From: SAR202 cluster bacterium Io17-Chloro-G4
GTDB taxonomy: Bacteria > Chloroflexota > Dehalococcoidia > Lucifugimonadales > UBA3495
Reading direction: 5' to 3'
NCBI GenBank assembly: GCA_002816455.1
Contig: MUCR01000018.1
Span: 1,855 to 65,854 of the forward strand
Length of the DNA: 64,000 bases
This document shows positions 3,153 through 48,094 of the stretch, in pieces; within the stretch, counting starts at the first letter, position 1; every line of letters begins with the position of its first letter. The position numbers and the translations under genes are program-made. The notes beneath the pieces are model-generated. The model made no database searches. It was not told where the DNA came from and worked only from the letters and a program-made list of their open reading frames with translations.

Positions 3153-3545
3153 CTATGCCTGGGTCGGCAACCCAGCTTCCTTCCAACCCTTCATACCGCC
3201 GTCTATGTAGGTTACGTTTGTGAATCCCATCTCTTTGAGCGCTTGTGCCCCAAGCGAAGCCATGTGGCCAAGCCCTCAAGTCGTGATGATTTTTCGTGAA
3301 CGGTCTTGTAATCTTGGGTTGCGCAAGGGCTCGGGTACCTCCAAGTCTGCGCGTATGGGGAGAGTGCCCAGAGAAATCATCAAAACGTCAGGGGCCCTAT
3401 CGGTCTCTGGTACAGATTCCGCATCTCGGACTTCAATGAGAATAGCTTCCTCGTCATCTTGAAGGCTTTGGTAGGCCTCCATAGGGGTAACTCCGGTCAC
3501 TTCGGCTTTCGCCTCATTCACCATGTCCATCCAGCTTTTTGCCAT
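3153..3545 (-). CDS. single-domain rhodanese (sulfurtransferase) with in-frame TGA at the catalytic Cys position; candidate selenoprotein
   Basis: GAGGAGG lies 8 nt upstream of the ATG at 3545. The frame reads through TGA 3276..3278 into GLGHMASLGAQALKEMGFTNVTYIDGGMKGWKEAGLPTQA and ends at TAG 3153..3155. Total length is about 130 aa, typical for a rhodanese. Confidence 0.65.
3240..3256 (-). promoter_or_regulatory. SECIS-like hairpin downstream of the rhodanese UGA
   Basis: CGCUUG-GGGCA-CAAGCG starts 19 nt 3' of the UGA and has a G-rich apical loop. Confidence 0.45.
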
Positions 3546-4318: not shown

Positions 4319-4756
4319 CTAGCCCTTAGCTTCAGCAATAAAGACCGGGATGGTTCGGTCAGTTTTATCTTGGTATTCTTGATAAGGCGGGTATGCCGCC
4401 ACCGCAATATCCCAGAGCCGTTGTCTCTCGCCGGCATCTACCACTTCCCGTACCCGCATCCAGTAGACTTTAGCCTCGTCCCGAATCTCCACTTCCGGGT
4501 CCGACTTTAGATTGTGGTACCACAGGGGATGTTCCGGCGCTCCACCTCTAGATGCCACTAGTATGTAGTTGTTTCCGTCCACTGCTCTCATTAACGGTGT
4601 CTTGCGGATGGCCCCTGTCTTCCGGCCTCGATTGGTCACAATTATGACCGGCAATCCTGTATCCCTCAAAGTCAAACCTTGAGTTCCTCCGCTCCCTTCA
4701 TACAGTTCAACTTGGTCTGCCACCCATTGCGAGGGGCTGGGAATATATTCGCTCAT
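4319..4756 (-). CDS. deazaflavin (F420)-dependent nitroreductase/quinone reductase family protein (DDN-like)
   Basis: GGAGGA RBS. Motifs VIIVTNRGRKTGAIRKTPL, GGAPEHPLWYHNL and IPVFIAE are typical of PF04075-type proteins. Confidence 0.85.
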   Translation of the reverse strand: MSEYIPSPSQWVADQVELYEGSGGTQGLTLRDTGLPVIIVTNRGRKTGAIRKTPLMRAVDGNNYILVASRGGAPEHPLWYHNLKSDPEVEIRDEAKVYWMRVREVVDAGERQRLWDIAVAAYPPYQEYQDKTDRTIPVFIAEAKG

Positions 4757-4878: not shown

Positions 4879-7800
4879 CTAATCGGACAGAAAGCGGGGC
4901 AGCTTGAAAGGCTTTTCCTCAGGAGGAGGCGGAGGAGTGACCGAAACGGAGCGCACCCCTGTGGCAGGAGTATCCGCTGGTTTTCGATCAGTTGCAGGCT
5001 GGGACCTGGGGGCTGGTTTTTGGGATCCAGCATTTTTGGATCTGCCCAAAAGACGCTTCAATAGTTGGCCGATACCCTGGCCTACACCCTGGCCGTTACT
5101 TTTAGCCTTTTCTTTTGCTCCGTTATCCGCCTGGCTCCGCTCGTCTGAGGTGGCGATCTCCGGCGCACTCCTCCTTCGGGAAGCCCTCGGCTGGATTTCT
5201 ATTTCAGCTTTTGCTTTCTCTGCCGCTTCGGCCCGTGCTCCAATCTGCTCCACTTCTCGAGCTCGGTCCGAGAGTTGCTGTTCGAGTTCGGTTGTCTGTT
5301 GGGAGGCGTCTTCTAGTTGTTTAGTAAGCTGGAAATACAGGGTGGTCAGTCTCTTCCTATCTTTCTCCACCGTTTCAGACCTGGTCTGTAAGCCTTGGAC
5401 CGCTTGAGACTGGTCCGCAACCTGCCGCTCCAGGTGCGCTATCCGTTGGCTGCTTTCTTCAATCTGAGCGTGAAGCGCTGCCGCTCTTTCTTCTGCTTCT
5501 TCCTTCTGCCTCTGGAGATTGGTAATCTCTTGAGTGCGGGCCGAAAGCTGCCGATTCAAATCTGCTGTCTGTTGGCGGCCTTCTTCCAACTGGCCGCTTA
5601 AGACTTCTTTTTCCTTATCAGATGCTTCGGCCTGAGATTGGTGGTCTTGAATTTCTTGGCTGCGTGTCGAGAGTTCTTGTTCCAGTTGGGATACCCTTTG
5701 ACGCCCCTCTTCCAGTTGGGTATCCAGATTTTCCGACCTTTCTTCGGCCGCCAAAGCTCTCATTTCGAGGCTTTGAAACTCCTGACTTTGCTCCGATAGC
5801 CGCTGCTCCAGTTCCGTCACCGTCTGCTGTGCTTGTTCTAACTGGCTGGTGAGACTGAAATACTGGCTGGTCAGGTTGTCCCGCTCTCTCTCCGAAGCGA
5901 CAGTACGGGCCTCTAAGCTTTGAACGTCCTGAGCGCGGGCTGCTAGCTGCTGTTCCAACTCGGTGATACGCCTGCTGGCTTCTTCCGATTGGGCGCCCAA
6001 GGATTCGGCTTTTTCTTCAGCGGCGTTGGAACGGAGTTGGAGTTGCTTGACTTCTTGGTCACGGGCAGCCAGTTGCTGGTCTAATTCCGCGCTACGCTGC
6101 CGGGAAACTTCCAGTAATGCGCCCAAGTCGTCTCTGCTTTGCTCGGCGTCCAGTGCGCGTGCTTCAAGGTCTTGTACCTGTTGGCTGCGGTCCGCGAGTT
6201 GTTGGTCCAACTCGGTGACTCGTCGCCGGGTCGCGTCCAACTGGGTGTTTAGGTTGTCCCGTTCTTGCTGAACGCCTTCGGCACGGAGCTCGAGGTTTTG
6301 GATTTCTTCACTCCGCGCTGCGAGTTGTTGGTCCAATTCAGCCGCACGCTGGCGACCTTCATCTAATTGGCGGTTTAGGTCGTCCCTGTCTTTGTCGCTG
6401 GCCACTGCCCGTAATTCATGGCCCTGCACTTCCTGGATTCGAGCGATCAACTGTTGGTCTAGCTCGGACGCCCTCTGCCGCCCTTCTTCTATTTGCCGGG
6501 TCAGGTTATCCCGGTCTTTTTCTGCGGCTACGGCCCGAAGTTCCAGGGCTTGAATCTCCGTGACTCGGGTGGAGAGTTGTTGGTTCAGGTCGGTAGCCCG
6601 CTGAACTGTCTCCTCCAATTGGATGCTCAGTGTTTCCGAGCCTTCTTCCGCAGCAGATGCCCGTCGCTATAAAACTTGAATTTCCTGAATTCGAGCCGAA
6701 AGTTGCTCGTCCAGTTCCGTGGCACGCTGACGTCTTTCAGCAAGCTGGCTGTTGAGATTGTCCCGGTCCTTCTCAGAGGCTACGGCATGCAGTTCATGCT
6801 CCCGGATTTCTTGGCTTCGGGTCAGGAGTTGCTGGTCCAACTCAGTGGCGCTTTGGCGTCCTTCTTCCAACTGGACGGCGAGATTATCCCGGTCCCTCTC
6901 CGCCGCAACAACGCGCCGTTCCAGTCCTTGAATTTCCTGGGACTGGTTGGAACTCTGTTGGCCTATCTCTGTGGACCGTTGCAGCGCGTCCTCTAGTTGG
7001 GCGCTGAGAGCCTCAGAGGCTTCTTCCGCAGCAGATGCCCGCTGTTCGAGACCTTGGATTTCTTGAATGCAGACGAGAGCTGGTCGTCTAGCTCGGTTGC
7101 CCGTTGGCGTCTCTCGGAAAGTTGACTATTTAGGTTATCCCTGTCCTTCTCGGCGGCCACCGCCTGTAGCTCAAGGTCCCTGATTTCTTGATTGCGGACG
7201 GCAAGTTGCTGATCCAAGTCTTTGAGACGCTGGCCTCCGTCCTCAACCTGGCCGGAGAGACTGTCTTTGTCCTTTTCGGCGCCGGCGGCGCGTCGCTCCA
7301 GGCTCTGGAGTTCTTGGTTTCGGTCCGAGAGTTGTTGCTCCAGCCCGGCCAGCCGCTGTCGGCCTTCTTCCAATTGGGCGCCCAAATTTTCCGACGAGTC
7401 TTCCGCCGCACTGGCCCGCAGTTCAAGCCCCTGCACTTCTTGAGTTCGTTCCGAGAGTTGCTGGTCTAACTCGGTTGCTCTCTGGCGCCTTTCATCAAGC
7501 TGGCTGCTCAGATTATCCCGGTCTTTCTCGACGGCTACCGCATCCAGTTCTAGCGTTTGTATTCGCTGACCGCGTTCGGCTAACTGTTGCTCCAACGTCC
7601 CGATGCGTTGCCGGCCTTCCTCGGCAACGTTGTCCTTATCCCTCTCGGCCGCGACCGCTCGCTTATCCAAATCCTGCACTTCTTGCGTGCGTTCTGAGAG
7701 TTGCTGGTCAAGTTCGGCCACCCGTTGGCGTCTTTCGGAGAGTTGGCTGTTCAAGTTCTCTTGGTCTCTGCCATGAGCCACCGCTCGTAGCTCGTGCTCC

Positions 7801-20736: not shown

Positions 20737-21945
20737 CTACTGGGTCACTTCGCGCTGCTTGAAGTCATTAACTTGGTCCATGCTATAACCCAAGCCGAGC
20801 AAGACGTCTTGGGTATGCTGGCCGGTGACGGAGCCGACATGGCGCGCTTTCCCCGGTGTGTCCGACATGTGGAATGGGATGCCTATCTGGGAAACTTTCC
20901 CTTGAGGAGCCCCAGGCGCTTCAACCTCCACCACCATGCCCCGGTGGACTGTGTGAGGGTCGTTCAGCGCTTCTTCCATGCTATATACCTTACCCACGGA
21001 GATGTTCTGGTCTTTCAAGTACTCAAACCAATCGTCCCTGGTGCGGGTGACAAAGGTTTCCTCAAGGAACTTGGTGATTTCGTCCCGCTCTGGACCTTCC
21101 GCTTCTTGGCTGTCAACCAGGTCCTCACGGCCTAGAACCTTACAAAGATTTACCCAGAACCAAGGCTCTATAGCTGCGATTGTCAGATATTTGTTGTCCT
21201 TGGTGCGGTAGACGTTGTAATAGGTGGCCCCCCCGTTAAGGCGGCTCATGCCCCGTTTGGGAGACCGTCCCTCGCTATAAAACCCGGATACTACCGCCGC
21301 CAACATATACATCACACCTTCGGTCATGGCAATGTCCAGGTATTGGCCCCTCCCCGTGTTGTGACGCGCCATCAGGGCGGAGAGCACCGCAATAGCTCCG
21401 CATAGGCCGCCTCCGGCATAGTCGGCCAACAGGTTCAGTGGAATGGCTGGCTTTTCTTCCTCCGAATAGCCGATCATGCTCAACACACCGGAAAAGGAAA
21501 TATAGTTGATGTCGTGGCCAGCCATATCGGCATACGGACCGGTTTGGCCGTATCCGGACACCGAGCAATAAACTGCCCTGGGATTAATCTCTTTGACCTT
21601 TTCGTAGCCCGCCCCAAGCCGGTCCATGACCCCTGGTCTAAATCCCTCCACAATCACATCAGCGTCCTTAGCCAGGCTGTAGAAAATCTCCCTGGCTTCC
21701 GGCTCTTTCAAGTTCAGGGCCAGGCTGCGTTTGTTCCGGCGCAAAGCGTCGTAGGTTGCGTGCTTACGCTCATCTTCCGGGGTGGCAATGCCGCTGACGA
21801 CTTTTTCATAAGCGGCGCGCTCTCCGGTCATGGGACGTTCCAGCATCAGGACATCGGCGCCCAAGTCCCCTAAAATCATGGTGCAGAACATGCCCGGGGC
21901 GTTGCGGCAAAAGTCCAGGACCTTGATACCCTCTAGAGCTTGCAT
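20737..21945 (-). CDS. family III (CaiB/BaiF) CoA-transferase, stand-alone
   Basis: AAGGAG RBS before the ATG at 21945. Motifs KVLDFCRNAPGMFCTMILGDLGADV and GYGQTGPYADMAGHDINY, with the catalytic Asp present. Confidence 0.85.
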   Translation of the reverse strand: MQALEGIKVLDFCRNAPGMFCTMILGDLGADVLMLERPMTGERAAYEKVVSGIATPEDERKHATYDALRRNKRSLALNLKEPEAREIFYSLAKDADVIVEGFRPGVMDRLGAGYEKVKEINPRAVYCSVSGYGQTGPYADMAGHDINYISFSGVLSMIGYSEEEKPAIPLNLLADYAGGGLCGAIAVLSALMARHNTGRGQYLDIAMTEGVMYMLAAVVSGFYSEGRSPKRGMSRLNGGATYYNVYRTKDNKYLTIAAIEPWFWVNLCKVLGREDLVDSQEAEGPERDEITKFLEETFVTRTRDDWFEYLKDQNISVGKVYSMEEALNDPHTVHRGMVVEVEAPGAPQGKVSQIGIPFHMSDTPGKARHVGSVTGQHTQDVLLGLGYSMDQVNDFKQREVTQ

Positions 21946-22164
21946 AGGGAGGCTCCTTGGTAATATTTGAATGAAAGAGGCAATGTGAGAGACATTATAG
22001 CGGAGATAATGGCAGAGTTGAGTGTAGCCACCGCATGCTGTTGGCTGCCATGATGCATCGCCCATTGCGAGGGGCTATAATCTCTTTGCCTCGAAGAGAG
22101 CCGGGCAATCGCCGGCATAACTAATCCATCTTTTTGATTAATTTAGCTTGGACAGGAGTGCACC

Positions 22165-23916: not shown

Positions 23917-24267
23917 CTATTCGGTCAGAGGAACGAAAATCGACACTCTGGGCTCAGGACTCACAACCTCGGTGGTGTGGCCCCGGCCTGTGAGGTCGTC
24001 GGCGAAAAGCACTTCTCCAACCCCGAATGTATGGGAACTGCCGTCACCGATGGTGATTTTGGACTGGCCCTGCAGGATAATCACGTACTGCCGGGCTGGA
24101 GCGGGGTGCCAGCTTATGAAATGGCCTGGGGGAGAATGCCGGAACTGGATTCCTGAAGCTCCCCGCATAGCAGTTACTTCAGCATTAGCGATGGGCGTGT
24201 AAGGTAAATCCAATTCCTCGAAGTGGGACTCTCCGTCCTCTCCGCTGTAAACCCTGATTACTTTCAT
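23917..24267 (-). CDS. small cupin-domain protein
   Basis: 116 aa. HFEELDL...WHPAPARQYVIILQG...GRGHTT; paralogue of 24599..24949. Confidence 0.8.
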   Translation of the reverse strand: MKVIRVYSGEDGESHFEELDLPYTPIANAEVTAMRGASGIQFRHSPPGHFISWHPAPARQYVIILQGQSKITIGDGSSHTFGVGEVLFADDLTGRGHTTEVVSPEPRVSIFVPLTE

Positions 24268-24598: not shown

Positions 24599-24949
24599 CT
24601 AACCCACCAATGGAATAGACACAGACACCCTGGCGTCGCCGCCTACGGCTTCTGTGGTGTGGCCTCGGCCAGTGAGATCATCGGCCAAGAGCACATCTCC
24701 GGGGTTAAACAGACGCTTGGTGCCGTCGCCGATTCCGACTTCCATCTGTCCTTGCAGGGTAATAACGTACTGTCGACGGGGCGCCTGGTGCCAATCGGAG
24801 AAGCTGCCGGCAGGCGTCTTCCGAAATTGGACACCGGAAGCTCCGCTCATGGCAGTCACTTGGGCGTCGGCAATGGCTTCATAGGGTAGGTCCAATTCTT
24901 CAAAATGGGTCTCACCGTCATCGCCGGTGTAAATCCTGACCACTTGCAT
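24599..24949 (-). CDS. small cupin-domain protein (paralogue)
   Basis: 116 aa, AGGAGA RBS, collinear with 23917..24267. Confidence 0.8.
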   Translation of the reverse strand: MQVVRIYTGDDGETHFEELDLPYEAIADAQVTAMSGASGVQFRKTPAGSFSDWHQAPRRQYVITLQGQMEVGIGDGTKRLFNPGDVLLADDLTGRGHTTEAVGGDARVSVSIPLVG

Positions 24950-29540: not shown

Positions 29541-30494
29541 ATGGCTTTATTTTTAAAAGACGATGACGTGCGCCAATGCGTTTCGATGGACGAAATGCTT
29601 GATGCAATCGAAACGATGCAGCGGCATTACGGCAACGGAGAAGCTTACAACTTGCCCCGGCGCAAGATTATCGCAAGCGGTGGCATGCTTTCTGTAATGG
29701 GCGGAGGCCTTTACTACCAAGGCCTGCTTGGAGTAAAAACCTACACGGTGGTCAAAGGGACTTATTCTTTTCAAGTCAGCTTATATGACGCCGAGACGGG
29801 CAAACTCGTTTGCTACACCCAGGCCAATAGGTTAGGCCAGTTACGGACCGGCGCCACTTCCGGGGTGGCTGTAAGGCACCTAGCCAAATCCCACGCAACA
29901 ACCATCGGCATCATAGGGACAGGCGGTCAAGCCCCGACACAGCTTGAGGCGGTATCCAAAGTCCGAAACATCAAGAAAGTGCTAGCTTATAGTCGCAATA
30001 CCGAACGGCGGGAAGCTTTCGCTCGCTCTGCTAGCGAAACTTTGGGAATCGACGTCGAAGCTGCCGAAAGCAATCGTGAAGCGATTGAGGGCGCCGACAT
30101 CATTATCTGCATAGCCGCGACCACGACGCCGGTATTGGAAGGCGACTGGCTATCCGATGGGAGCACTGTCATCGGCGCCGGACCCACCAGTTGGCGCCAC
30201 CAGGAAGTAGACGACGCCACGTTCTCCAAGGCCGACAAGATTTTCGTCGATTCTCCCGAACAGGCCACCGTGGAGGCGGGCGACATGGCCAGCGCTGTAG
30301 ACCGGGGCCTGCTGCAGTGGAGTCAATTATTGGAGTTGCGCCATGCCGTGGCTGGCAAGGTCAAGGGCCGGGAAAACGACCAGCAGATTGTCTACGCCAA
30401 GCTCATGGGCACGGGTGTTGCGGATGTGGCGGCGGCTGCCCTAGCCTACGAGAAGGCCAAGGCTAAAGGAGTTGGAATGGAGATGGACTGGTAG
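29541..30494 (+). CDS. ornithine cyclodeaminase / mu-crystallin family protein
   Basis: Motifs LRTGATSGVA and IGIIGTGGQA; 317 aa. Confidence 0.85.
   Translation: MALFLKDDDVRQCVSMDEMLDAIETMQRHYGNGEAYNLPRRKIIASGGMLSVMGGGLYYQGLLGVKTYTVVKGTYSFQVSLYDAETGKLVCYTQANRLGQLRTGATSGVAVRHLAKSHATTIGIIGTGGQAPTQLEAVSKVRNIKKVLAYSRNTERREAFARSASETLGIDVEAAESNREAIEGADIIICIAATTTPVLEGDWLSDGSTVIGAGPTSWRHQEVDDATFSKADKIFVDSPEQATVEAGDMASAVDRGLLQWSQLLELRHAVAGKVKGRENDQQIVYAKLMGTGVADVAAAALAYEKAKAKGVGMEMDW
30433..30491 (+). repeat. left copy of a about 60-bp imperfect direct repeat (3' end of the OCD gene)
   Basis: Encodes AAALAYEKAKAKGVGMEMDW. It aligns with 31230..31289, which encodes AAALAYEKAKGMRVGLEMDW. Confidence 0.75.
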
Positions 30495-30516
30495 GTAGCG
30501 CTCTGAAAACCTTGCT

Positions 30517-30545
30517 TTGACATATTTATGTCATCTATATATGAT
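30517..30545 (+). promoter_or_regulatory. vapBC promoter with operator palindrome, probably giving a leaderless mRNA
   Basis: TTGACA-N17-TATGAT, with the ATG 7 nt after the -10 box. The palindrome TGACAT-ATTT-ATGTCA overlaps the -35 box. Confidence 0.55.
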
Positions 30546-30552
30546 TTGATAT

Positions 30553-30807
30553 ATGAGAACCACAATTAGATTGGACGACCAGCTTCTCACCGAAGCTAAG
30601 TTACTCGCCGCCTCCACAGGGCGTAGCCTCACATCGGTTATCGAAGACGCTCTGCGGGAGATGTTAGCACGTAGGCAAAAATCAGGCCGCCAGGAACCGA
30701 TCAAGTTGAAGACCGTCCCTGGGAAGCTTCTGCCGGGAATCGACCTAGACGATTCGGCGGCACTGCTTGATATCATGGAACAGAACGATGGACCTGCTCG
30801 ACGTTAA
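30553..30807 (+). CDS. vapB: VapB-type ribbon-helix-helix antitoxin
   Basis: MRTTIRLDDQLLTEAKLLAASTGRSLTSVIEDALREML. Confidence 0.8.
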   Translation: MRTTIRLDDQLLTEAKLLAASTGRSLTSVIEDALREMLARRQKSGRQEPIKLKTVPGKLLPGIDLDDSAALLDIMEQNDGPARR

Positions 30808-31219
30808 CGTATTGGTCTATGCCCACAAACAGGGCTCGCCAAACCATCGAGACTACCGCCTTTGGTTGGAAGAGTTAGTCCAGGGCGATGAGGCTTATGG
30901 AATATCCGATATTGTGTTGAGCGGTTTTCTTCGCATAGTTACTCATCCAAGCATTTTCCGCCCTCCCAGTGATATAGGCTCGGCATTGGAGTTCGCGACC
31001 CGGGTGCGGGAGCGGCCCAACTGCGTGCAAATATATCCAGGCCCCCGCCATTGGTCAATCTTCACCAGGCTTTGCCAACACGTTAGCGCCAAAGGCAACC
31101 TGGTTCCCGACGCCTACTTTGCCGCACTGGCGATTGAATCGGGCAGCGTATGGGTCACATCAGACAGGGACTACGGCAAATTCCCCGGCCTGAAGTGGCG
31201 GCATCCTCTCGGAAGCTGA
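30788..31219 (+). CDS. vapC: VapC PIN-domain toxin
   Basis: MDLLDVNVLVYA...VPDAYFAALAIESGSVWVTSDRDY. Overlaps the vapB stop. Confidence 0.85.
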   Translation: MDLLDVNVLVYAHKQGSPNHRDYRLWLEELVQGDEAYGISDIVLSGFLRIVTHPSIFRPPSDIGSALEFATRVRERPNCVQIYPGPRHWSIFTRLCQHVSAKGNLVPDAYFAALAIESGSVWVTSDRDYGKFPGLKWRHPLGS

Positions 31220-31229
31220 AAAAGCCTCG

Positions 31230-31289
31230 GCAGCCGCGCTAGCCTACGAGAAAGCCAAGGGTATGCGTGTTGGATTGGAGATGGACTGG
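31230..31289 (+). repeat. right copy of the direct repeat (relic OCD C-terminus)
   Basis: See 30433..30491. Here there is no stop after MDW, so the relic is non-functional. Confidence 0.75.
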
Positions 31290-31354
31290 AAGGCGGGGGT
31301 GGAATCTAACTGGAATCTACCTGTTATAGGCTGTGCAGACAAAAAGGATCGGGA

Positions 31355-31567
31355 TCATAGCAAATCTCTAAACTGTTCCTCAGATAAGCCGGCGTCACGC
31401 ACGATCCCACCCATCGTATACGCGTTTAGCGGATTATTGCGGGGAATGGTGAGGAATCGAACGCCATCGCTCATTATTATGTGCTTGCTCTGCCGTAAGA
31501 CTTGAAAGCCGGCTTTTTCCAACGCTTGCACGGCCCGGAGATGATTGACGCCGGGGATTCTTGGCAT
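31355..31567 (-). CDS. hicA: HicA-like mRNA interferase toxin
   Basis: 70 aa, AVQALEKAGFQVLRQSKHIIM...GGIVRDAGLSEEQFRDLL. Confidence 0.75.
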   Translation of the reverse strand: MPRIPGVNHLRAVQALEKAGFQVLRQSKHIIMSDGVRFLTIPRNNPLNAYTMGGIVRDAGLSEEQFRDLL

Positions 31568-31569
31568 AG

Positions 31570-31767
31570 CTAAACCGAGACTTCAACCTCTCTAACTTCT
31601 GCGCCATCTAAGGAATCTGTGATCGCCGCCAGATACTCCTGGATGGCATCCTTGATGTTTTCAATAGCTTCCAGCTCGCTTTCCCCCTGGGACCAACAGC
31701 CAGGCAAACCCGGGCAAGACACGCTGAAACCTTCGTCGGATTCCTGCAAAACGACTTTGTACCGCAT
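31570..31767 (-). CDS. hicB: HicB-like antitoxin (UPF0150 fold)
   Basis: AGAGGTG RBS. MRYKVVLQESDEGFSVSCPGLPGCWSQGESELEAIENIKDAI. Confidence 0.75.
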   Translation of the reverse strand: MRYKVVLQESDEGFSVSCPGLPGCWSQGESELEAIENIKDAIQEYLAAITDSLDGAEVREVEVSV

Positions 31768-31804: not shown

Positions 31805-34800
31805 CTAACCCCCGTCCAGGTACTCATCAATGCACTGCACGCTGTAGTTGCTGTGTTCCATTAGCAGGCTCTGCACAGCCGCTCGGGCTGTGTCCAGAGA
31901 CGTGAAGCAAGGCACCTGGCGTTCGGCGGCTGACCGGCGAATTAGGTAGCCATCCCGCAGTACCGAGCTCACTTCAGAGATGGTATTTATCACGGCCCCC
32001 ACGTTGCCGTCTTCGATTACATCCACTACGTTCGGATGGCCCTCTCCCATCTTTTTCGTGGTCATAGTGACCGGGACTCCCATTGCCGAGATCATGGCGG
32101 CAGTACCTTCAGTGGCGTAGAGTTGACAGCCAGCTTGGTCCAGTTCCAGAACCAGCGACGCAACCTCAGCCTTATGCTGGTCGGCTATGCTCAAAAGCAC
32201 CCCCATACCTGTTTCCAAACTGAGACCGGCGGCCATCAACGCCTTGGTGAGTGCATTGGGAAAGTCCCTGTCGATGCCCATGACTTCCCCGGTAGACTTC
32301 ATTTCCGGCCCAAGGTGCCAGTCCACGCCCACCAGCTTCACCATGGAAAACACCGGCGCCTTGATGCCAACCAGGTTTTGGGTAGGCCACAGCCCTCCCT
32401 CATAACCCTGCTCTTCCAGGCTTTGGCCCAGCATCACTCGAGTGGCAATGCGAACCACGGGGACCCCGGTAACTTTCGATATGAAGGGGATAGTCCTGCT
32501 GCCTCTAGGATTGACCTCCAGGACGTACACGGTGGTTGATTGACGCCCGTCGTTGCTCAAGAAAGGGCTCCGGTAAGGCGCACCGCCTTGAATCACAAAT
32601 TGGACGTTCATCAGGCCTCGCACTCCCAAGGCTACGCCGATTTGCGTTGTGTAATCAACAATGGCCGCGATCTCTTCATCGCTGAGGTTCAATCCCGGAT
32701 ATGTAGCCATGGAGTCGCCACTATGCACTCCAGCCCGCTCAATATGCTCCATGATGCCCGGAATCAACACCCGCTGGCCGTCGCAGATTGCGTCAACCTC
32801 GCACTCTTTGCCCTCCATATAATGGTCGATGAGTACCGGTTTATCCGAGGCTATTTCAGAAGCGACCGTTAAATAGCGAATTAATTCGGTGGCGTTTTGG
32901 ACGATCTCCATGGCCCTGCCTCCCAGCACATAGCTGGGCCGGACAACAGCGGGGTAGCCAATATTCTGGGCGACCGTGAGCGCCTCTTGCACCGAGCTCA
33001 CAGTGGCGCCCGGAGGCTGAGGGATACCCAAGCCGACCATGAACTCTTCAAACTTCTTCCGGTCCGAAGCTATGTCTATTGCCTCGGCGCTGGAACCTAA
33101 AATGGGCAGGCCGGCATTGCCAAGGGACTGGGACAGGTCGATGGCCGTTTGGCCGCCAAATTGCACCACCACAGGCGGCGGCTGGTCGTCTCCGGCCTCG
33201 TTATCCAGAATGTCTCTCAGTGCCTCTTCATCCAGAGGTTCAAAGTAGAGCCGGTCACTGGCGTCAAAGTCTGTTGATACCGTTTCGGGATTGGAGTTGA
33301 CCATGATGCTGGAATATCCTTCCTGGGAAAGAGCCCATGCGGCATGGACGCTACAGTAATCGAACTCAATTCCTTGACCGATTCTTATGGGGCCACTGCC
33401 TATGACCACCGCTTTTTTGCCGGGTAAAGGCGGCGCTTCATTTTCTTGGTCGTAGGTGCTGTAGTAATAGGGCGTAACTGCCTCGAATTCAGCGGCGCAG
33501 GTATCCACCATTTTGTAAACTGGGCGGATGTCCCACTGCAGGCGCTGGGTGCGCACCTGCTCCGGCAACATGTCCGCCAGGGTGCCCACCTGCTCGTCCG
33601 AGAAGCCCATGCGTTTGGCCCTCAGCAGCAAGTCGGGAGTCAGCGCCTCGGACAGCAATCGCCGCTCCATGGCCACGATGCGGGCCAAAGCATTGATGAA
33701 CCACGAGTCAACATGGGTTTTCCGGACCAGGGTTCCGGGACTCACATCCCGGCGGAGGGCCGCCATGAGGGCCCACACCCGAAGGTCGTTGGGCCCGATG
33801 GGCAGATCGTCCAAGGAGAATTTCTCCCGGGCGCTCCACGACTGGTCTTCCCACAGTAGGCTGCGGCCTCCCAGTTCCAAGGACCTGGTCGCTTTTTGCA
33901 AGGCGGCCTCGAAAGAACGGTCGATGACCATCACCTCTCCGGTGGCCTTCATTTGGGTGGTAGTTCTACGGTCGCCGTGGGGGAATTTGTCGAAGGGCCA
34001 ACGGGGGAACTTGACCACGCAGTAATCAAGGGCAGGTTCAAAGGCGGCCTGGGTCATGCCGGTGACCGCATTTGGGATTTCGTCTAGCCGCTTGCCCACC
34101 GCAATCTTTGCGGCGACCCTGGCGATTGGGTATCCCGTGGCTTTGCTGGCAAGGGCCGAGCTCCGGCTGACCCGTGGATTGACTTCAATAACGTAGTAAG
34201 GAGATTGGTGCTGGTCACCCATCCCCAAAGCTTCGTTCACCAAGGTGTGGGGTTGCAACGCAAACTGGACGTTGCAACCTCCCTCTATGCCCAGTCCGCG
34301 GATAATCCTCAGGCTGGCCGAGCGCAGCATCTGATAATCTTTGTCGGTCAAGGTCTGGCTGGGTGCGACCACGATGCTGTCCCCGGTGTGCACGCCCATT
34401 GGGTCCAGGTTTTCCATGTTGCATACGGTGATGCAGTTGTCGGCGCTATCCCGCATCACTTCGTACTCGATTTCCTTCCAGCCAACGAGGGACTGCTCCA
34501 GCAAGACTTGGGAAATGGGGCTTCGGGCCAATCCGTTGGCAGCGATTGTCTCAAACTCTTCCCAAGTCTCGGCTATGCCTCCCCCGGTGCCGCCCAAAGT
34601 GTAGGCGGGGCGAATCACCAAAGGCAAACCTAAATCTTTAGCTCGAATCCGGGCTTCTTCGATGGTGGACACCGACACGTTGTTGGGCTCGGGCTCGCCC
34701 AGTTCGTGGAGGAACTGGCGGAAGAATTCCCGGTCTTCGGACTTGCGGATTGTTTCCAGAGGAGTACCCAACATGCGGACGTTGTATTTTTCCAAAACGC

Positions 34801-35110
34801 CAGCGTCGGCCAATGCGACTGCCAAATTGAGGCCCGTCTGTCCGCCCAAGGTGGGCAAGATTCCGTCGGGCCGCTCTGTCTGGATGACCCGTTCTAAGAC
34901 TTCCACAGTGAGGGGTTCTATGTAGACCCGGTCGGCAATGCCTTGGTCGGTCATGATGGTCGCCGGGTTGGAATTTACGAGGACGGTGATGACGCCTTCT
35001 TCGCGAAGGGCTTTGCAGGCTTGGGTTCCGGCGTAGTCGAATTCGGCCGCTTGGCCAATAACAATAGGTCCGGAGCCAATGACTAGCACTTTTTCCGGCC
35101 TATCGGCCAA
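31805..35110 (-). CDS. carB: carbamoyl-phosphate synthase large subunit
   Basis: 1101 aa with duplicated ATP-grasp halves. [24 protein letters not shown] and [22 protein letters not shown] start with GAGGAG RBS. Confidence 0.97.
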
Positions 35111-35262: not shown

Positions 35263-35697
35263 TCACTCCACCGGTAGAGCGCCGGGCAGATTGATAAGCC
35301 TGTGACGCTGAAGCGTGTTCAGCGTTTGCGAGACGAACGAGCCGAAAATGCGACCATCGGGGTCGTTTTCGTTCACTAATGCGACTTCTTCCCGGGAAGA
35401 AGATTCCGCGCCGCACCGGGGTGGAATCCTAATACTGACGTATTGGCCGTCCAGCTTTTCCAACTCGACTCGCCCAACGGGAAATAGCGCATGGTCGCCA
35501 CTGGCATGGTTTCCTGATTTGATCATCAGTTCCCAGCGCTTGCCAACAGTTCCCTTTCCCGATGTCACGCTGTAGTTATATCCATTGCAAGAAAAATAAG
35601 GGACCTCGCGGTCTAAGAGAGAAATAATTGCTGTGAGATCCGATGGCACCTCCACCTCCACACCCTCCTCCAACATACTCATGATGAAGGAAGACAT
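35263..35697 (-). CDS. hypothetical protein inserted between carA and carB
   Basis: 144-aa ORF with GGAGGT RBS 5 nt upstream. I recognise no domain. Flanked by about 300 nt and about 150 nt of non-coding DNA. Confidence 0.6.
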   Translation of the reverse strand: MSSFIMSMLEEGVEVEVPSDLTAIISLLDREVPYFSCNGYNYSVTSGKGTVGKRWELMIKSGNHASGDHALFPVGRVELEKLDGQYVSIRIPPRCGAESSSREEVALVNENDPDGRIFGSFVSQTLNTLQRHRLINLPGALPVE

Positions 35698-42961: not shown

Positions 42962-44185
42962 ATGCTCAGTCCTTACACAGTTTTAGACCTTACCGATGAC
43001 AAAGGTGAGTTCGCCGGCATGCTCCTTGGAGACTTGGGCGCAGACGTCATCAAGATAGAGCCGCCGGAAGGCTCAAATAGCCGCAAGATGGAGCCATTCT
43101 TGGACGGGGCGCCAGACTCCGAACGCAGCCTTCGTTATTTTGCGTTCAACCGTAACAAGCGGGGCGTTACCCTAGACTTGAACAGCGATGACGGCAAGCT
43201 AGCTCTCAGGTCCCTGGCAGAGAAGGCGGACTTCATCATCGAATCGGCTCCACCGGGCGAGATGGACCGTCTAGGTGTTGGATTTGACGTTCTCAGGCAG
43301 GTCAACCCCCGCATAGTGCATGTGGCGATAACACCCTTTGGCCAGGATGGCCCGTACGCCAATTTCGCCGCCAATGATTTGACCCTGGCCGCCATGAGCG
43401 GGCAAATGAGCGTTCAAGGTGACCCAAATAGACCCCCGGTGCGCATCACAGTACCCCAGGTGTGGTTGCACGCCTCGGCCGAAGCAGTGGTGGGAGCGCT
43501 CACCGCCCACGCTAGGATGCTGGCGACGGGAGAGGCGCAGTTTGTGGACGTATCCGCCCAGACCGCCATGTTCTGGTCCATGTTGCACGCCCGGCTTGCT
43601 CATCCGATTCAGGGGTCCAATTTCAACCGGGGTGGATCTGTACTCCAATTGGGAACTTTAAGCGTGCCGGTCGTGTACGAGTGCGCCGACGGTCACATCG
43701 TAGCGCTTCCCTCGGGCGCCACGATGGTCAAGATGGTCCACTGGCTGGTGGCCGACGGAGTTGTGCCCGAAGAATGGATAGAAGGCGAAGACTGGCCCAT
43801 CTACGAAAGGAACCTATTCCAGGAAAACGCCGTGCGATACCCCATGGAAGAAGTTGTGGATGCCGTTAGCCGTTATATAAAGAGACGCACCAAAGCTGAA
43901 CTCTTGGAGTTGGGTCTTCGGGAAGGCGTGACGCTGGCGCCGGTGAGCACCGCAGAGGACTTGGTCCGCTTTCGGCATTTGGAGGAGCGGGGATACTGGC
44001 TCACAGCTCCGTTACCAAACGGCAGCGAGGTGCGAGCGCTAGGAGTCTTAGCGAGGCCTACGGCGACTCCCATGAGCGTCCGCCTTTGGGCGCCGGCATT
44101 GGGCCAACACAATCAGGAAGTCCTAGGAGACATGCTGGGGCTGTCGCCAGCGTCAGCCGCCGCCGCCAGCGGCCGGAAGGGGTAG
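42962..44185 (+). CDS. family III CoA-transferase, subunit type A (copy 1, catalytic Asp present)
   Basis: Motifs VLDLTDDKGEFAGMLLGDLGADV and GQDGPYANFAANDLTLAAMSG. Confidence 0.85.
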   Translation: MLSPYTVLDLTDDKGEFAGMLLGDLGADVIKIEPPEGSNSRKMEPFLDGAPDSERSLRYFAFNRNKRGVTLDLNSDDGKLALRSLAEKADFIIESAPPGEMDRLGVGFDVLRQVNPRIVHVAITPFGQDGPYANFAANDLTLAAMSGQMSVQGDPNRPPVRITVPQVWLHASAEAVVGALTAHARMLATGEAQFVDVSAQTAMFWSMLHARLAHPIQGSNFNRGGSVLQLGTLSVPVVYECADGHIVALPSGATMVKMVHWLVADGVVPEEWIEGEDWPIYERNLFQENAVRYPMEEVVDAVSRYIKRRTKAELLELGLREGVTLAPVSTAEDLVRFRHLEERGYWLTAPLPNGSEVRALGVLARPTATPMSVRLWAPALGQHNQEVLGDMLGLSPASAAAASGRKG

Positions 44186-44188
44186 TAC

Positions 44189-45412
44189 ATGGCCTCATCA
44201 GACAAGTTGCCATTTGATGGCGTGAAAATTGCGGACTTTTCTTGGGTGTGGGTCGGCCCTACCAGCACCAAATACCTGGCGGACCACGGCGCCACCGTTG
44301 TGAGGGTGGAATCCCTGAGCCGGCCTGATATCCTGTATAGCCTCGGTCCGTTCAAAGACCGGGAGGCCGGACCCACCAGGACCCATGCTTTCAGCGACTT
44401 CAATACGTCCAAGCTTGGCCTTACTTTGAATTTAAAGACTCCCGAAGCCACTGAAATCGCCAAACGCTTGATTTCCTGGACCGACGTTTACGTTGAAAGT
44501 TTCACTCCTGGGACGATGGCCGGATTGGGCATAGATTATGAAGTAGCCAGGAAAGTTAACCCGTCAATAATCATGGTCAGCACTTGTCTTATGGGGCAGA
44601 GCGGCCCGGCATCGGCCTTCGCTGGCTATGGGTTTCATGCCGGGGCAGTGGCTGGATTTTACGACATTACGGGCTGGCCTGATCTTGCCCCAGATGGACC
44701 CTGGGTGGCCTACACCGATGTGGTCACTCCTAGAATTCTGTCGGCCATTATAATGGCGGCCGTGGACCATAAACGCCGTACCGGCCAAGGCCAATATATC
44801 GACGCCAGCCAATTGGAGATGGGACTGCAGTTCTTGGCGCCCCAGATCCTCGATTACACTGCTAACGATCACTTGACCACACGCAACGGAAACCGATCCA
44901 ACTTTGCTGCCCCGCAGGGAGCGTATTCCTGCGCCGGTGATGACCAATGGTGCGCCATTGCCGTCGAAAGTGACGAAGAGTGGGCTGGCTTGGTCAAGGT
45001 ACTAGGAAACCCCGGTTTGGCTACGGACGGCCGTTTCGCCACAAACTCAGGTCGTCTACAAAACCACGACGAGATTGACGCTCAAATCTCTCAGTGGACT
45101 GCCGCCAAGACGCCGCAAGAAGTGATGAGGCTCTGCCAAGCAGAGGGTGTGCCGGCGGGAGTAGTCCAGCGAAGCAGTGACTTGTTTGAGGACCCGCAAC
45201 TGGCTCACCGGAGAATGTTTCCTCAGCTCGACGATCCACAAGTGGGACCGGTTCCTCACACCGGTCATCTGTTTGACATTCGCGGCTACGACCATGGGCC
45301 GCGGTCCCCCTCTCCGTTAATAGGCCAGCACAACGAGCAGATATTGAAAGAATTCCTGGGCATGACTGATGACGAAATCACCGAAGCCGTAATAGCGGGC
45401 GCCCTGGAATAA
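44189..45412 (+). CDS. family III CoA-transferase-like, subunit type B (copy 1, Asp replaced by Gly)
   Basis: Motifs KIADFSWVWVGPTSTKYLADHGATV and GQSGPASAFAGYGFHAGAVAG. Starts 3 nt after A1 ends. Confidence 0.85.
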   Translation: MASSDKLPFDGVKIADFSWVWVGPTSTKYLADHGATVVRVESLSRPDILYSLGPFKDREAGPTRTHAFSDFNTSKLGLTLNLKTPEATEIAKRLISWTDVYVESFTPGTMAGLGIDYEVARKVNPSIIMVSTCLMGQSGPASAFAGYGFHAGAVAGFYDITGWPDLAPDGPWVAYTDVVTPRILSAIIMAAVDHKRRTGQGQYIDASQLEMGLQFLAPQILDYTANDHLTTRNGNRSNFAAPQGAYSCAGDDQWCAIAVESDEEWAGLVKVLGNPGLATDGRFATNSGRLQNHDEIDAQISQWTAAKTPQEVMRLCQAEGVPAGVVQRSSDLFEDPQLAHRRMFPQLDDPQVGPVPHTGHLFDIRGYDHGPRSPSPLIGQHNEQILKEFLGMTDDEITEAVIAGALE

Positions 45413-45454
45413 ATTAAATCATGGTAATCAAGAACCGGGCGTGAAAGGACCTAA

Positions 45455-46681
45455 ATGCTCAGTCCCTACACAGTATTGGACCTGACGGATGAAAAAGGCG
45501 AGTTGGCCAGCATGGTGCTGGGCGACTTGGGCGCGGACGTAATCAAGGTGGAGCCGCCCGGTGGCTCGCCGAGCCGGGCCATGGGGCCATATTTGGAACA
45601 CGCTCCAGAGGCGGAACGTAGCCTCCAATACTTTGCTTTCAACCGAAACAAACGTAGCGTAACTCTGGACCTGGAAACGGAAACGGGGCGCACCGCATTG
45701 TTCTCTTTGGTGGAAAAAGCCGATTTCATCATCGAGTCGGCCCAGGCGGGGGCGATGGCCGGGAAGGGGCTGGGATTTGAAGCCATGCGGCAAGCGAATC
45801 CCCGTATCGTTTACGTGGCTATAACACCATTTGGGCAAGATGGGCCTCATGCGAATTTCCCCGCCAGCGACCTGACTGTTGCCGCAATGGGCGGCCCCAT
45901 GAGCCTGCAGGGGGTTCCAGACCGCGCTCCCGTGCGATTGTCCCTGCCCCAAGCTTGGCTACATGCTTCGGTGGAAGCATCAGTCGGAGCTTTGACCGCC
46001 CACGCCCTGATGCTACGCACTAACCAAGCCCAATTTGTGGATGTGTCCGCTCAGACTGCCATGATTTGGACCATGATGCAGGGGATGTCAGCTCACTCGG
46101 TCCAAGGCCGGGACTTCAACCGGAGCGGCAACACAATCCAGTTGGGAACGGTCAACCTCCGTTTGGTCCACGAATGCGCTGACGGCTACGTGGTGATATT
46201 TCCCATTGGGGGCGCCCTGTTTAAGCTAGTCGAATGGTGCGTTCAGGATGGCATTATTCCCGAAGATTGGCTCACTGCCGAAGATTGGCCCATGTACCAT
46301 TTCAAAGTGCTCCAACAGCAACCGGTGGCCCATACGATTGACGAAGTTTTGGAAACTGTCAGCGCCTATGTTCGGGACAAAACTAAAAACCAATTGCTAG
46401 AGCATGGTCTCGCCGAGGGAGTGTCCATGGCTCCGGTGAGCAACATGGAAGATTTGACCCGATTCCGTCACTTGGAGGAGCGCGGTTATTGGCTTACGGC
46501 CCCGTTGCCCAATGGAAGCGAAGCCCAAGTGCCGGGCATTTTCGCCAACCTCACCGGAACGCCTTTGAGTGTACGCCGTTGGCCCCCCAAACTGGGTGAG
46601 CACACCGACGAAGTATTGGGGGACCTATTAGGGCTGTCGTCAAGCCAGATCGCGGACGCGTCTGGCCATGGGCCAGGTTAA
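45455..46681 (+). CDS. family III CoA-transferase, subunit type A (copy 2)
   Basis: Collinear with 42962..44185. GQDGPHANFPASDLTVAAMGG. Confidence 0.85.
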   Translation: MLSPYTVLDLTDEKGELASMVLGDLGADVIKVEPPGGSPSRAMGPYLEHAPEAERSLQYFAFNRNKRSVTLDLETETGRTALFSLVEKADFIIESAQAGAMAGKGLGFEAMRQANPRIVYVAITPFGQDGPHANFPASDLTVAAMGGPMSLQGVPDRAPVRLSLPQAWLHASVEASVGALTAHALMLRTNQAQFVDVSAQTAMIWTMMQGMSAHSVQGRDFNRSGNTIQLGTVNLRLVHECADGYVVIFPIGGALFKLVEWCVQDGIIPEDWLTAEDWPMYHFKVLQQQPVAHTIDEVLETVSAYVRDKTKNQLLEHGLAEGVSMAPVSNMEDLTRFRHLEERGYWLTAPLPNGSEAQVPGIFANLTGTPLSVRRWPPKLGEHTDEVLGDLLGLSSSQIADASGHGPG

Positions 46682-46698
46682 TACGATTCTCTCATTAT

Positions 46699-46815
46699 GT
46701 CATTCTGAAAGAGCGCAGCGACAGAAGCTCCCCCGATGGCATCGGGGCGAGTCCTCGACAACGTCGGGAAATCTCGTGTGTTTAGCATCAGATCCTTCAC
46801 TTCACACAGAATGAC
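46699..46815. mobile_element. MITE-like about 117-bp insertion between A2 and B2
   Basis: Terminal inverted repeats GTCATTCTG (46699..46707) and CAGAATGAC (46807..46815), with an internal hairpin CCCCGAT-GGC-ATCGGGG. The A1-B1 junction has only a 3-nt spacer. Confidence 0.55.
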
Positions 46816-46873
46816 ACTCCGTAAATGGAGAGTACCAAATTTGAGGCCGTCTAAGACAAGAGTAGAGGTTTAG

Positions 46874-48094
46874 ATGCCGGATACGCTGCCGTTTGAAGGG
46901 TTAAAAATCGCCGACTTTTCGTGGGTCGGAGTGGGTCCCATTACCACCAAATACCTGGCCGACCACGGGGCAACCGTAGTGCGGGTGGAGACTACCAGCC
47001 CTCTGGATATTCTACGGGTCGCCGGCCCCTTCAAAGACAGTGTGCCGGGCCCAAACCGCAGCCAGTTCTTCGCCGACTACAATACTTCCAAATACGGAAT
47101 CACCTTAGACCTAAAAAACGCAGCCGCAGTCGAGGTGGCTCACCGCCTGATTGCCTGGGCCGATGTTCTTGCTGAGAGTTTTACCCCCGGCACCGTGGAC
47201 AGCCTGGGCATCGGGTACGAAACCGCTCGTGCCATTAACCCTTCAATAATAATGGCCAGCACTTGCTTGATGGGGCAGACCGGCCCCGCCGCTAGCTTTG
47301 CCGGCTTCGGATTTCATGCCGGTTCCATCGCTGGCTATTATGAGATCACCGGATGGCCCGACCTTCCACCGGACGGTCCTTGGACCGCCTACACCGACAC
47401 GGTATCACCTCGATTTTTAGCCGCGATATTAATGGCCGCTCTGGACCACCGGCGTAGAACCGGTGAAGGCCAACACATCGATGCTGCTCAGTTGGAGATG
47501 AGCCTTCACTTCCTTGCGCCTCAATTGATTGATTACAACGTCAGCGGACGGTCGATCACCCGAAACGGCAACCGTTCCGAGTTTATGGCGCCTCACGGGG
47601 CTTTTCCTTGCCAAGGTGAGGACCAATGGTGCGCCGTGGCCGTGGAAAACGACCAGCAATGGGCTGGGCTGCAAAGGGCCATGGGTGAGCCTGACTGGGC
47701 CAAAGACCAGAGATTCGCCCATGTGGAGGGCCGTCTAGCAAACCAGGACGAAATAGAAAGCAAGCTAGGCGAGTGGACAAAGTCCATGCCGCCGAAAGCG
47801 GTTATGGAAGCTTTGCATGGGCAAGGCGTTCCAGCCGGCATCGTTCAGCGGAGCAGTGACCTGCAGCAAGACCCTCAATTGGCTCACCGAGGGTTTTTCC
47901 GGGACCTGGACCACCAAGAAATGGGCACCGTACCTTACGCTGGCCACCAGTTCCGCATCAGCGGCTACGACAGCGCCCCCAGGTCAGCGGCGCCTGTGCT
48001 GGGCCAGCACAACGACGAGGTGCTGCGGGATATCTTGGAAATGACCGAGGAAGAGATTACCGAAGCCATAATTGCCGGAGCCTTGGGCGGCTAA
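46874..48094 (+). CDS. family III CoA-transferase-like, subunit type B (copy 2, Asp replaced by Gly)
   Basis: Collinear with 44189..45412. GQTGPAASFAGFGFHAGSIAG. Confidence 0.85.
   Translation: MPDTLPFEGLKIADFSWVGVGPITTKYLADHGATVVRVETTSPLDILRVAGPFKDSVPGPNRSQFFADYNTSKYGITLDLKNAAAVEVAHRLIAWADVLAESFTPGTVDSLGIGYETARAINPSIIMASTCLMGQTGPAASFAGFGFHAGSIAGYYEITGWPDLPPDGPWTAYTDTVSPRFLAAILMAALDHRRRTGEGQHIDAAQLEMSLHFLAPQLIDYNVSGRSITRNGNRSEFMAPHGAFPCQGEDQWCAVAVENDQQWAGLQRAMGEPDWAKDQRFAHVEGRLANQDEIESKLGEWTKSMPPKAVMEALHGQGVPAGIVQRSSDLQQDPQLAHRGFFRDLDHQEMGTVPYAGHQFRISGYDSAPRSAAPVLGQHNDEVLRDILEMTEEEITEAIIAGALGG

Follow-up and report, generated by a model that had tools for sequence, protein, structure and literature searches.

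A vapBC module bracketed by direct repeats of a neighbouring gene's 3' end at the OCD/carB junction of SAR202 and related Dehalococcoidia

A duplicated 3' end of an ornithine cyclodeaminase (OCD)-family gene brackets a vapBC toxin-antitoxin (TA) module in a 64,000-nt stretch of DNA from SAR202 cluster bacterium Io17-Chloro-G4 (the window; coordinates are positions in it, and L-numbers denote the loci of relatives that were compared). The module lies between OCD and the convergent carB gene. We consider it probable, at roughly 60%, that one-sided recombination displaced the C-terminus of OCD, and that the resulting direct repeats have since been refreshed by conversion or re-insertion and are able to excise the cassette precisely. 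Judged from sequence divergence, vapBC is an old occupant of this junction in at least ten Dehalococcoidia lineages, vertically inherited with OCD. The features that define the arrangement are the following.

29541..30494, + strand: OCD/mu-crystallin family gene, intact, 317 amino acids (aa), its 3' end forming repeat copy 1 (Pfam PF02423 OCD_Mu_crystall, 3.9e-55)
30430..30495, + strand: repeat copy 1 (c1), the last 20-21 OCD codons, the TAG stop and 1 nt more (repeat search and pairwise alignment)
30553..30807, + strand: vapB antitoxin, 84 aa, ribbon-helix-helix (Pfam PF09957, 4.2e-8; RHH_1)
30788..31219, + strand: vapC PIN-domain toxin, 143 aa (Pfam PF01850, 2.2e-13)
31228..31293, + strand: repeat copy 2 (c2), a pseudogenised OCD tail that has lost its stop and is out of frame with vapC (repeat search, alignment and homologue comparison)
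31805..35110, - strand: carB, 1101 aa, convergent with OCD and the right border of the variable junction (open reading frame, ORF; CPSase domains in the gene table)

The two copies, 30430-30495 and 31228-31293, are 66 nt long, align without gaps with 55/66 identical positions (83%) and have a spacing of 798. Local alignment of one flank of the module to the other gave a score of 77, whereas shuffled flanks averaged 19.4 and reached 24 at most. The longest identical run between c1 and c2 in the window is 14 nt. A preliminary description of this DNA had proposed that the OCD 3' end is duplicated around vapBC, and both the identity and the alignment score (77 versus at most 24) bear this out. Aligned by codon, c1 spans 30432-30491 with its stop at 30492-30494 and encodes AAALAYEKAKAKGVGMEMDW*; the preliminary description began it one base off, at 30433. 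The codon-aligned c2 spans 31230-31289, as described, and encodes AAALAYEKAKGMRVGLEMDW, with AAG where the stop codon TAG would be. The OCD protein of the window is 100% identical to the NCBI entry for Io17-Chloro-G4, and more than 100 OCD homologues are exactly 317 aa in length.

The downstream copy bears the clade-specific tail signature AAAL-AYEKAK. At the third of the 20 tail residues, alanine is found only in the 7 closest of 120 OCD homologues, the rest having lysine or asparagine. c2 has alanine at this position, which indicates that it derives from a narrow OCD clade. Among the variant residues of c2, methionine and leucine are common natural variants in the 120 homologues, glycine occurs in only 2 of them, and an arginine takes the place of a glycine shared by 119. 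Four differences between c1 and c2, all synonymous, fall in the conserved half of the tail, and the hypervariable half holds the methionine, leucine and glycine substitutions together with the one damaging Gly-to-Arg change. Judged by these codons, the copies in the window look like two alleles brought together. The idea of a foreign allele had been raised in the preliminary description, and the synonymous-only changes in the conserved half fit a second allele rather than decay in place. The locus is present on ENA scaffold_48 of ERZ23495206 and, with the same gene order, on an independent Logan contig (L002). Because independent assemblies and other lineages share the structure, an assembly artefact was rejected.

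Comparison with relatives revealed the junction in several states. The site is empty, with 6-13 nt between the stop codons of OCD and the convergent carB, in L004/L005, L007, L009 (OCD 88% identical to that of the window) and L015 (74%). The combination of vapBC with c2 recurs outside the window in L003/L008, L074, L076/L077 and L078. In L073, L075, L079 and L080, vapBC is present without c2, and vapC and carB either overlap at the vapC stop or have 3-22 nt between their stops. Two of these loci (L073 at 4429-4432 and L079 at 3429-3432) have a 4-nt gene overlap in which the vapC and carB stops share a CTAG palindrome. Finally, hicAB is present without vapBC in L011 and L012 (hicAB alone), L013 (three tandem units) and L010 (with other accessory genes). 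The empty sites in close relatives point to an insertion/deletion polymorphism, as the preliminary description had guessed.

All 10 fetched members of the nearest VapC clade (the window, L003/L008, L006, L073, L074, L075, L076/L077, L078, L079 and L080-L083) sit between OCD and carB. As compared to the window, their VapC proteins are 67-100% and their OCD proteins 68-100% identical. In a neighbour-joining tree, the VapC proteins from the OCD/carB site form one group, apart from family members in other contexts. Synonymous divergence (dS) of vapB/vapC was compared to that of OCD, giving 0.27-0.76 vs 0.36 for L003-L076, 0.54-0.66 vs 0.53 for L073-L079 and 0.84-1.35 vs 1.23 for window-L003. Between lineages that carry c2, OCD dS is 0.9-2.2, and distant pairs are saturated in both genes. 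Since vapBC dS follows OCD dS, the module has been co-inherited with OCD since before these lineages split, and any exchange would have taken place only between very close relatives. The preliminary description had read the arrangement as the footprint of a TA-module insertion. The tie between a displaced OCD tail and insertion of the cassette stands, but the insertion is neither recent nor specific to this genome, as vapBC occupies the same junction in at least ten lineages and co-diverges with OCD.

Sequence downstream of c2 identifies which copy is native. In L078, c2 and the spacer to the carB stop read CAG-CTGGGCG-CTA, and the corresponding sequence in its empty-site sister L004 is TAG-CTGGGCG-TTA (OCD dS 0.27). 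The spacer between c2 and carB is 6 nt in L074. In the window, 61 nt (31294-31354) separate c2 from the hicA end, which is comparable to the OCD-hicA spacing in L011 and L012. Since c2 is contiguous with the native spacer (L078 matching L004), the downstream copy is the displaced resident-side tail. This spacer and the alanine shared with the 7 closest homologues uphold the earlier suggestion that the downstream copy is a genuine displaced OCD C-terminus. As the sister pair also shows, no scar need remain when the cassette is lost or regained, and a crossover between c1 and c2 would give exactly this scarless difference. An intact OCD, passenger genes and a displaced 3' fragment on native downstream sequence are present in the window, L003, L074, L076 and L078, and the joint after vapC is decayed and differs between lineages.

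The c2 copies vary in length, identity to c1 and state of preservation.

Window: 55/66 identical to c1
L003/L008: about 77 nt, interrupted by indels
L076/L077: reduced to the 5' half
L078: 79/91 identical to c1, with a 33-nt identical run
L074: 63/72 identical to c1, including an identical run of 38 nt, and interrupted by TAA and TGA codons

The detectable c1/c2 homology ranges from 66 to about 100 nt among lineages. In five of five comparisons, the best match of c2 was the c1 of its own or a sister genome, and c2-to-c2 scores were always lower. Lineage-specific states are common to c2 and the local c1, namely AGT in L003, GCT-GCG-GGC-GTT in L078 and GCC-ATG-GGC-CTG-GGC in L074. The derived A..EK state is found in c2 of the whole window clade (clade I), and K..DR is found in c2 of L074, like L074's own clade. 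Damage to c2 takes different forms, from the Gly-to-Arg change and lost stop of the window to the internal stop codons of L074, the indels of L003 and the truncation of L076. In L078, L074 and L003, the hypervariable codons of c2 are those of c1 and conserved codons carry the damaging changes; from this pattern, these copies look like decaying versions of their own genome's tail. A neutral relic of the original insertion would be expected to be about 55-65% identical to c1, and the observed values are 83-88%. Given OCD dS of 0.9-2.2, an identity above this expectation indicates that c2 has been renewed, either by gene conversion from c1 or by repeated loss and re-formation, and both may occur.

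The simplest reading of the window alone is that c2 is an undecayed scar of a single insertion, with nothing having happened since. However, the cassette is older than lineages separated by OCD dS of 0.9-2.2, over which a neutral 66-nt relic would have fallen well below the identity observed, and the c2 copies hold lineage-specific derived states of their own c1. A passive fossil is contradicted unless every carrier lineage gained the cassette independently, recently and from near-identical donors, and we find it scarcely credible. A static footprint of an old insertion, as had been pictured in the preliminary description, does not agree with c2 matching the tail of its own lineage in all five cases.

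Retention of c2 for a function of its own was also considered. The best-preserved copies (L074 and L078) abut the carB stop directly via the native spacer, and read antisense, c2 could be the native 3' untranslated region (UTR) or terminator of carB (or hicA), placed in the OCD tail by the tight convergence of the genes. However, a scan of both strands of the window gave no terminator-like site at c2 or close to it, and antisense folds of the tail regions from 7 loci were no more stable than shuffles (z from +0.46 to -1.3). On these two results, c2 was rejected as a terminator or 3' UTR. Four lineages have no c2, and the copy is truncated in L076 and interrupted by indels in L003. Nor would selection for a terminator cause c2 to track c1 in its synonymous and hypervariable codons. 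Functional retention is therefore very improbable.

Short direct repeats are subject to concerted evolution by gene conversion and to precise deletion of the DNA between them, both through general RecA-dependent recombination. In the mechanism we favor, the cassette (leaderless promoter/operator, vapB and vapC, with no terminator) would have entered the short spacer of the convergent core genes OCD and carB. It would have been joined by recombination with OCD homology on one side only, through either homology-facilitated illegitimate recombination or a Campbell-type single crossover, pushing the resident 3' end downstream. In such a C-terminal displacement, the tail copy attached to the gene would keep OCD intact. 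The product would be direct repeats of 66-100 nt, about 0.8 kb apart, between which RecA-type recombination continues. Gene conversion (without crossover), or repeated loss of the cassette and its re-gain from close relatives, would hold c2 near the local c1. A crossover would delete the cassette exactly and leave an intact OCD, its stop codon and the native spacer, that is, a clean empty site. Between such events c2 would decay as a pseudogene, and deletion of c2 would give a locked-in version without the repeat. It is speculative that the toxin disfavors deletion of the cassette. The repeat, the empty sites, the site common to the lineages, the co-divergence and the tie of c2 to its own lineage are observed, whereas we infer how recombination proceeded, which way conversion ran and that the repeats serve for excision. 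Sliding-window identity of L078 to L004, and of the window to other loci, gave no convincing mosaic that would mark a recombination breakpoint inside OCD.

Several observations weigh against displacement followed by renewal. With repeats of about 70 nt in five genomes, gene conversion is indistinguishable from excision and re-insertion or from re-acquisition from relatives, and no circular or excised form was seen. The preference of c2 for its own c1 is narrow, with scores of 44 vs 39 for the window, 39-40 vs 38 for L003 and 33 vs 31 for L076. Third codon positions account for 22/35 of the c1/c2 differences, which is an excess over a uniform expectation (p=3e-4) that becomes marginal when compared to the 0.46 expected under in-place decay (p=0.03); the excess favors neither gene conversion nor an allelic origin over the other. 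There may be more than one process at work, as c2 of the window looks allelic and those of L078, L074 and L003 look like decayed copies of their own tails. The form without c2 is found in four lineages, and parsimony therefore gives no ancestral state for the duplication. The dS values near 1-2 are also close to saturation.

A second vapBC of the same family is flanked by repeats in L023, a soil metagenome contig whose VapC is 62% identical to that of the window. Here the cassette lies between copies of a 39-nt repeat that are 85% identical at a spacing of 770, both of which read ..HVIIPMFVQW followed by a stop. If the 40th position is counted, at which the stops differ (TAG and TAA), six of the seven differences are in third codon positions. 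No owner of the duplicated tail was identified, as the 42-aa peptide has no word-sharing homologue in the protein collection, and the ORF upstream, being no longer than about 65 aa, may likewise be a fragment. The flank test covered 16 vapBC loci, two of which had flanks too short; only the window, L003 and L023 passed, and 11 family loci with testable flanks showed no flanking repeats. In L023 (197-300 and 2064-2145), the 3' end of tRNA-Asn (16 nt) and the next 24-nt segment are also repeated perfectly 1.8 kb downstream. On sequence, these tRNA repeats are like the attL/attR of a tiny decayed island without an integrase, with the repeat-flanked vapBC nested inside.

The L023 repeat, at an unrelated locus, hints at generality and is compatible with a cassette that is mobile through homology. 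Recombination of c1 with c2 would release a circle of vapBC plus one tail, and a single crossover would re-insert it into the OCD tail of related cells. The tail would then act as a portable homology arm, or a borrowed att site within a core gene, with RecA supplied by the host and the toxin penalising cells that lose the cassette. In this case vapBC would be a selfish TA module. Such mobility accounts for a young c2, for empty sites in sister genomes and for the repeat-flanked structure in several lineages, and the differences in the window and L023, which look allelic, agree with the joining of a donor's tail to a recipient's. However, vapBC dS follows OCD dS, which confines transfer to very close relatives. 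In L078, L074 and L003, c2 has the hypervariable codons of its own c1 plus random damage, which in-place copying explains better, and no circle junction was observed. Mobility of this kind would be a special case of displacement and renewal, one with real horizontal movement, and we consider it unlikely.

Site-specific integration is less probable still, and we regard it as doubtful. In this interpretation, vapBC plus one tail is a tiny element without an integrase, mobilised in trans, whose att site is the OCD 3' end and whose attL and attR are c1 and c2. Direct repeats of a gene 3' end around an insert, with the target gene preserved, are a classic att signature. In clade I the left limit of c2 falls just past the vapC stop, and the flanking repeat of L023 is nested in an att-like duplication of tRNA-Asn. 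However, the ORFs of 110 aa or longer in the 16.4-45.4 kb interval of the window and the gene table of the L001 locus include no integrase or transposase, only metabolic and pyrimidine-synthesis genes. The VapC family profile had no relative on viral contigs in IMG/VR, and a viral origin was rejected on this result. The cassette co-diverges with the host gene rather than moving, and four lineages have it at the same site without the repeat. The homology also varies in length from 66 to about 100 nt, with scattered differences that do not flank an evident identical core and with identical runs whose positions differ by lineage.

Displacement of a 3' end by one-sided homologous recombination has precedent (PMC5361080). 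At rhs, contact-dependent inhibition (CDI) and type VI secretion system (T6SS) effector-immunity loci, C-termini are displaced and 3' fragments orphaned, for which homology-facilitated illegitimate recombination was proposed (PMC5361080). As in those systems, the conserved upstream gene body serves as the homologous anchor, the gene is intact with an incoming or duplicated 3' end, the travelling genes come next and the old 3' end is a non-functional fragment downstream. The present locus differs in that the tails are homologous (83-88%) rather than alternative toxin tips, the passenger is vapBC rather than an immunity gene, the anchor is a metabolic OCD-family enzyme and the displaced tail stays similar to the active tail across deep lineages. 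It resembles the attL/attR duplications of integrative elements, which target tRNA or protein gene 3' ends and bring a substitute end, in its repeats of a gene 3' end, its intact target and the empty sites in relatives. Unlike att-flanked elements, it showed no integrase nearby and no evident identical core, the element is about 730 bp of TA pair only and co-diverges with its host, and the repeat is missing in several lineages. The repeats are like substrates of RecA recombination in lying about 0.8 kb apart with long identical runs (33-38 nt), so that they could delete the intervening DNA; their very small length and 12-17% divergence, however, put them close to the lower limit at which RecA recombination is efficient.

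In PMC5120126, citing Ramisetty and Santhosh 2016, chromosomal type II TA modules are portrayed as minimal operons of promoter plus ORFs that move horizontally and integrate between core genes. As far as the account in PMC5120126 goes, the cassette agrees with such units in having a promoter/operator and two ORFs without a terminator, in occupying a spacer between conserved genes and in affecting the flanking sequence. It departs from that account in the duplicated coding tail of the neighbor, the use of one site in at least ten lineages and the evidence for concerted evolution of the duplicate. No prior description of such a tail duplication around a TA module was found, with the 2016 work represented through PMC5120126. 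The locus is a modestly interesting variation on two known themes, C-terminal displacement and att-like duplication.

The remaining features of the junction belong to the control region of vapBC and to a second TA pair on the carB side.

30517..30545, + strand: vapBC promoter TTGACA-N17-TATGAT, with the -35 box at 30517-30522 and the -10 box at 30540-30545 (promoter scan, 11/12 consensus match)
30518-30533, + strand: palindrome TGACAT-ATTT-ATGTCA, a putative VapB operator overlapping the -35 box (sequence)
31355..31567, - strand: hicA-like toxin, 70 aa, convergent with vapC (Pfam PF07927, 1.1e-5, 25.9 bits with a cut-off of 27)
31570..31767, - strand: hicB-like antitoxin, 65 aa, 37 nt downstream of carB on the same strand (Pfam PF15919, 9.8e-9)

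The PIN domain of VapC scored 51.3 bits (PF01850, cut-off 23.6), and VapB scored 33.4 bits (PF09957, cut-off 23.4) with RHH_1 also matched. The two genes overlap by 20 nt, and the VapC family has 5593 homologues. In a 10-sequence alignment, D5, D108, E117 and D126 of VapC were invariant and D41 nearly so; from general knowledge of PIN domains rather than a structure, we take D5, D108, E117 and D126 to be the active site. The vapB ATG at 30553 lies 7 nt past the -10 box, and the vapBC transcript would therefore be leaderless. The promoter, the palindrome and the near-leaderless start are as the preliminary description gave them, and this layout is kept in all the related cassettes (L003, L006, L073-L076 and L078-L080). 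The palindrome over the -35 box may serve as the VapB operator.

The HicB domain scored 35.9 bits (PF15919, cut-off 27), and hicA and hicB are separated by 2 nt on the minus strand. The HicA match (PF07927, E 1.1e-5) is below the 27-bit gathering score, and homologues are paired with HicB-like genes in L010-L013. hicB precedes hicA and lies directly downstream of carB on the same strand; given this order and the 37-nt gap, the pair may be co-transcribed with carB. The hicBA pair sits on the carB side in the window, with remnants in L003 (hicA) and L076 (hicB). Together with the loci that have hicAB without vapBC, this indicates that the junction gathers accessory genes from both sides. The TA islet did not arrive in one piece; it consists of two old occupants that are independent of each other. 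The preliminary description was thus right to place hicBA beyond vapBC, but the pair is a separate occupant on the carB side rather than part of one unit. No duplication of the OCD or carB tail was found around the hicAB-only inserts (L011-L013) or in L010, and no duplicated carB tail was found in any locus compared.

Two of these inserts have further features. In L013 (OZ242043.1, a Dehalococcoidia metagenome-assembled genome), positions 4955-6335 hold three near-identical tandem hicB-like genes (93-94 aa) between OCD and carB, together with one intact and two fragmentary copies of hicA; here a TA module has been amplified locally in tandem at the junction. The insert in L010 (CBDANJ010000007.1, 4955-6985) is about 2 kb and contains a 277-aa ORF with a Nudix-box-like motif, a fragment resembling a DNA methyltransferase and, adjoining carB, a hicAB-like pair, as assigned from translations only.

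The gene order around the junction is LysR-type regulator (-), small ferredoxin, OCD (+), vapB (+), vapC (+), hicA (-), hicB (-) and carB (-). carB is the last gene of a pyrimidine operon and is preceded by pyrR-like, pyrB-like and pyrC-like genes, carA and a 144-aa ORF. This ORF, between carA and carB (35263-35697, - strand), had no Pfam match and is found at the same position and length in L003. Two 116-aa ORFs without a Pfam match lie at 23917-24267 and 24599-24949 (- strand); L003 has one 116-aa gene there, so the window lineage may hold a tandem duplication. Four successive ORFs of about 407 aa lie at 42962-48094 (+ strand), the first two of which were scanned against Pfam and belong to CoA-transferase family III, and a further CoA-transferase III gene is present at 20737-22065. 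These copies fit the paralogue expansions reported for SAR202.

There is little sequence-level documentation of the entry, upkeep and exit of chromosomal TA modules in core genomes. The single junction described here, from an uncultured, globally abundant lineage, gives a natural series of empty sites, sites occupied with and without the repeat, and decayed sites. For annotation, the tail fragments are pseudogenic and not genes, and the intact upstream gene is not to be flagged as disrupted. The duplicated gene tail is not the scar of a single event but a recombination substrate active over long periods. No dedicated recombinase would be needed for TA modules to pass between relatives if the repeat allows them to be excised precisely and inserted again.

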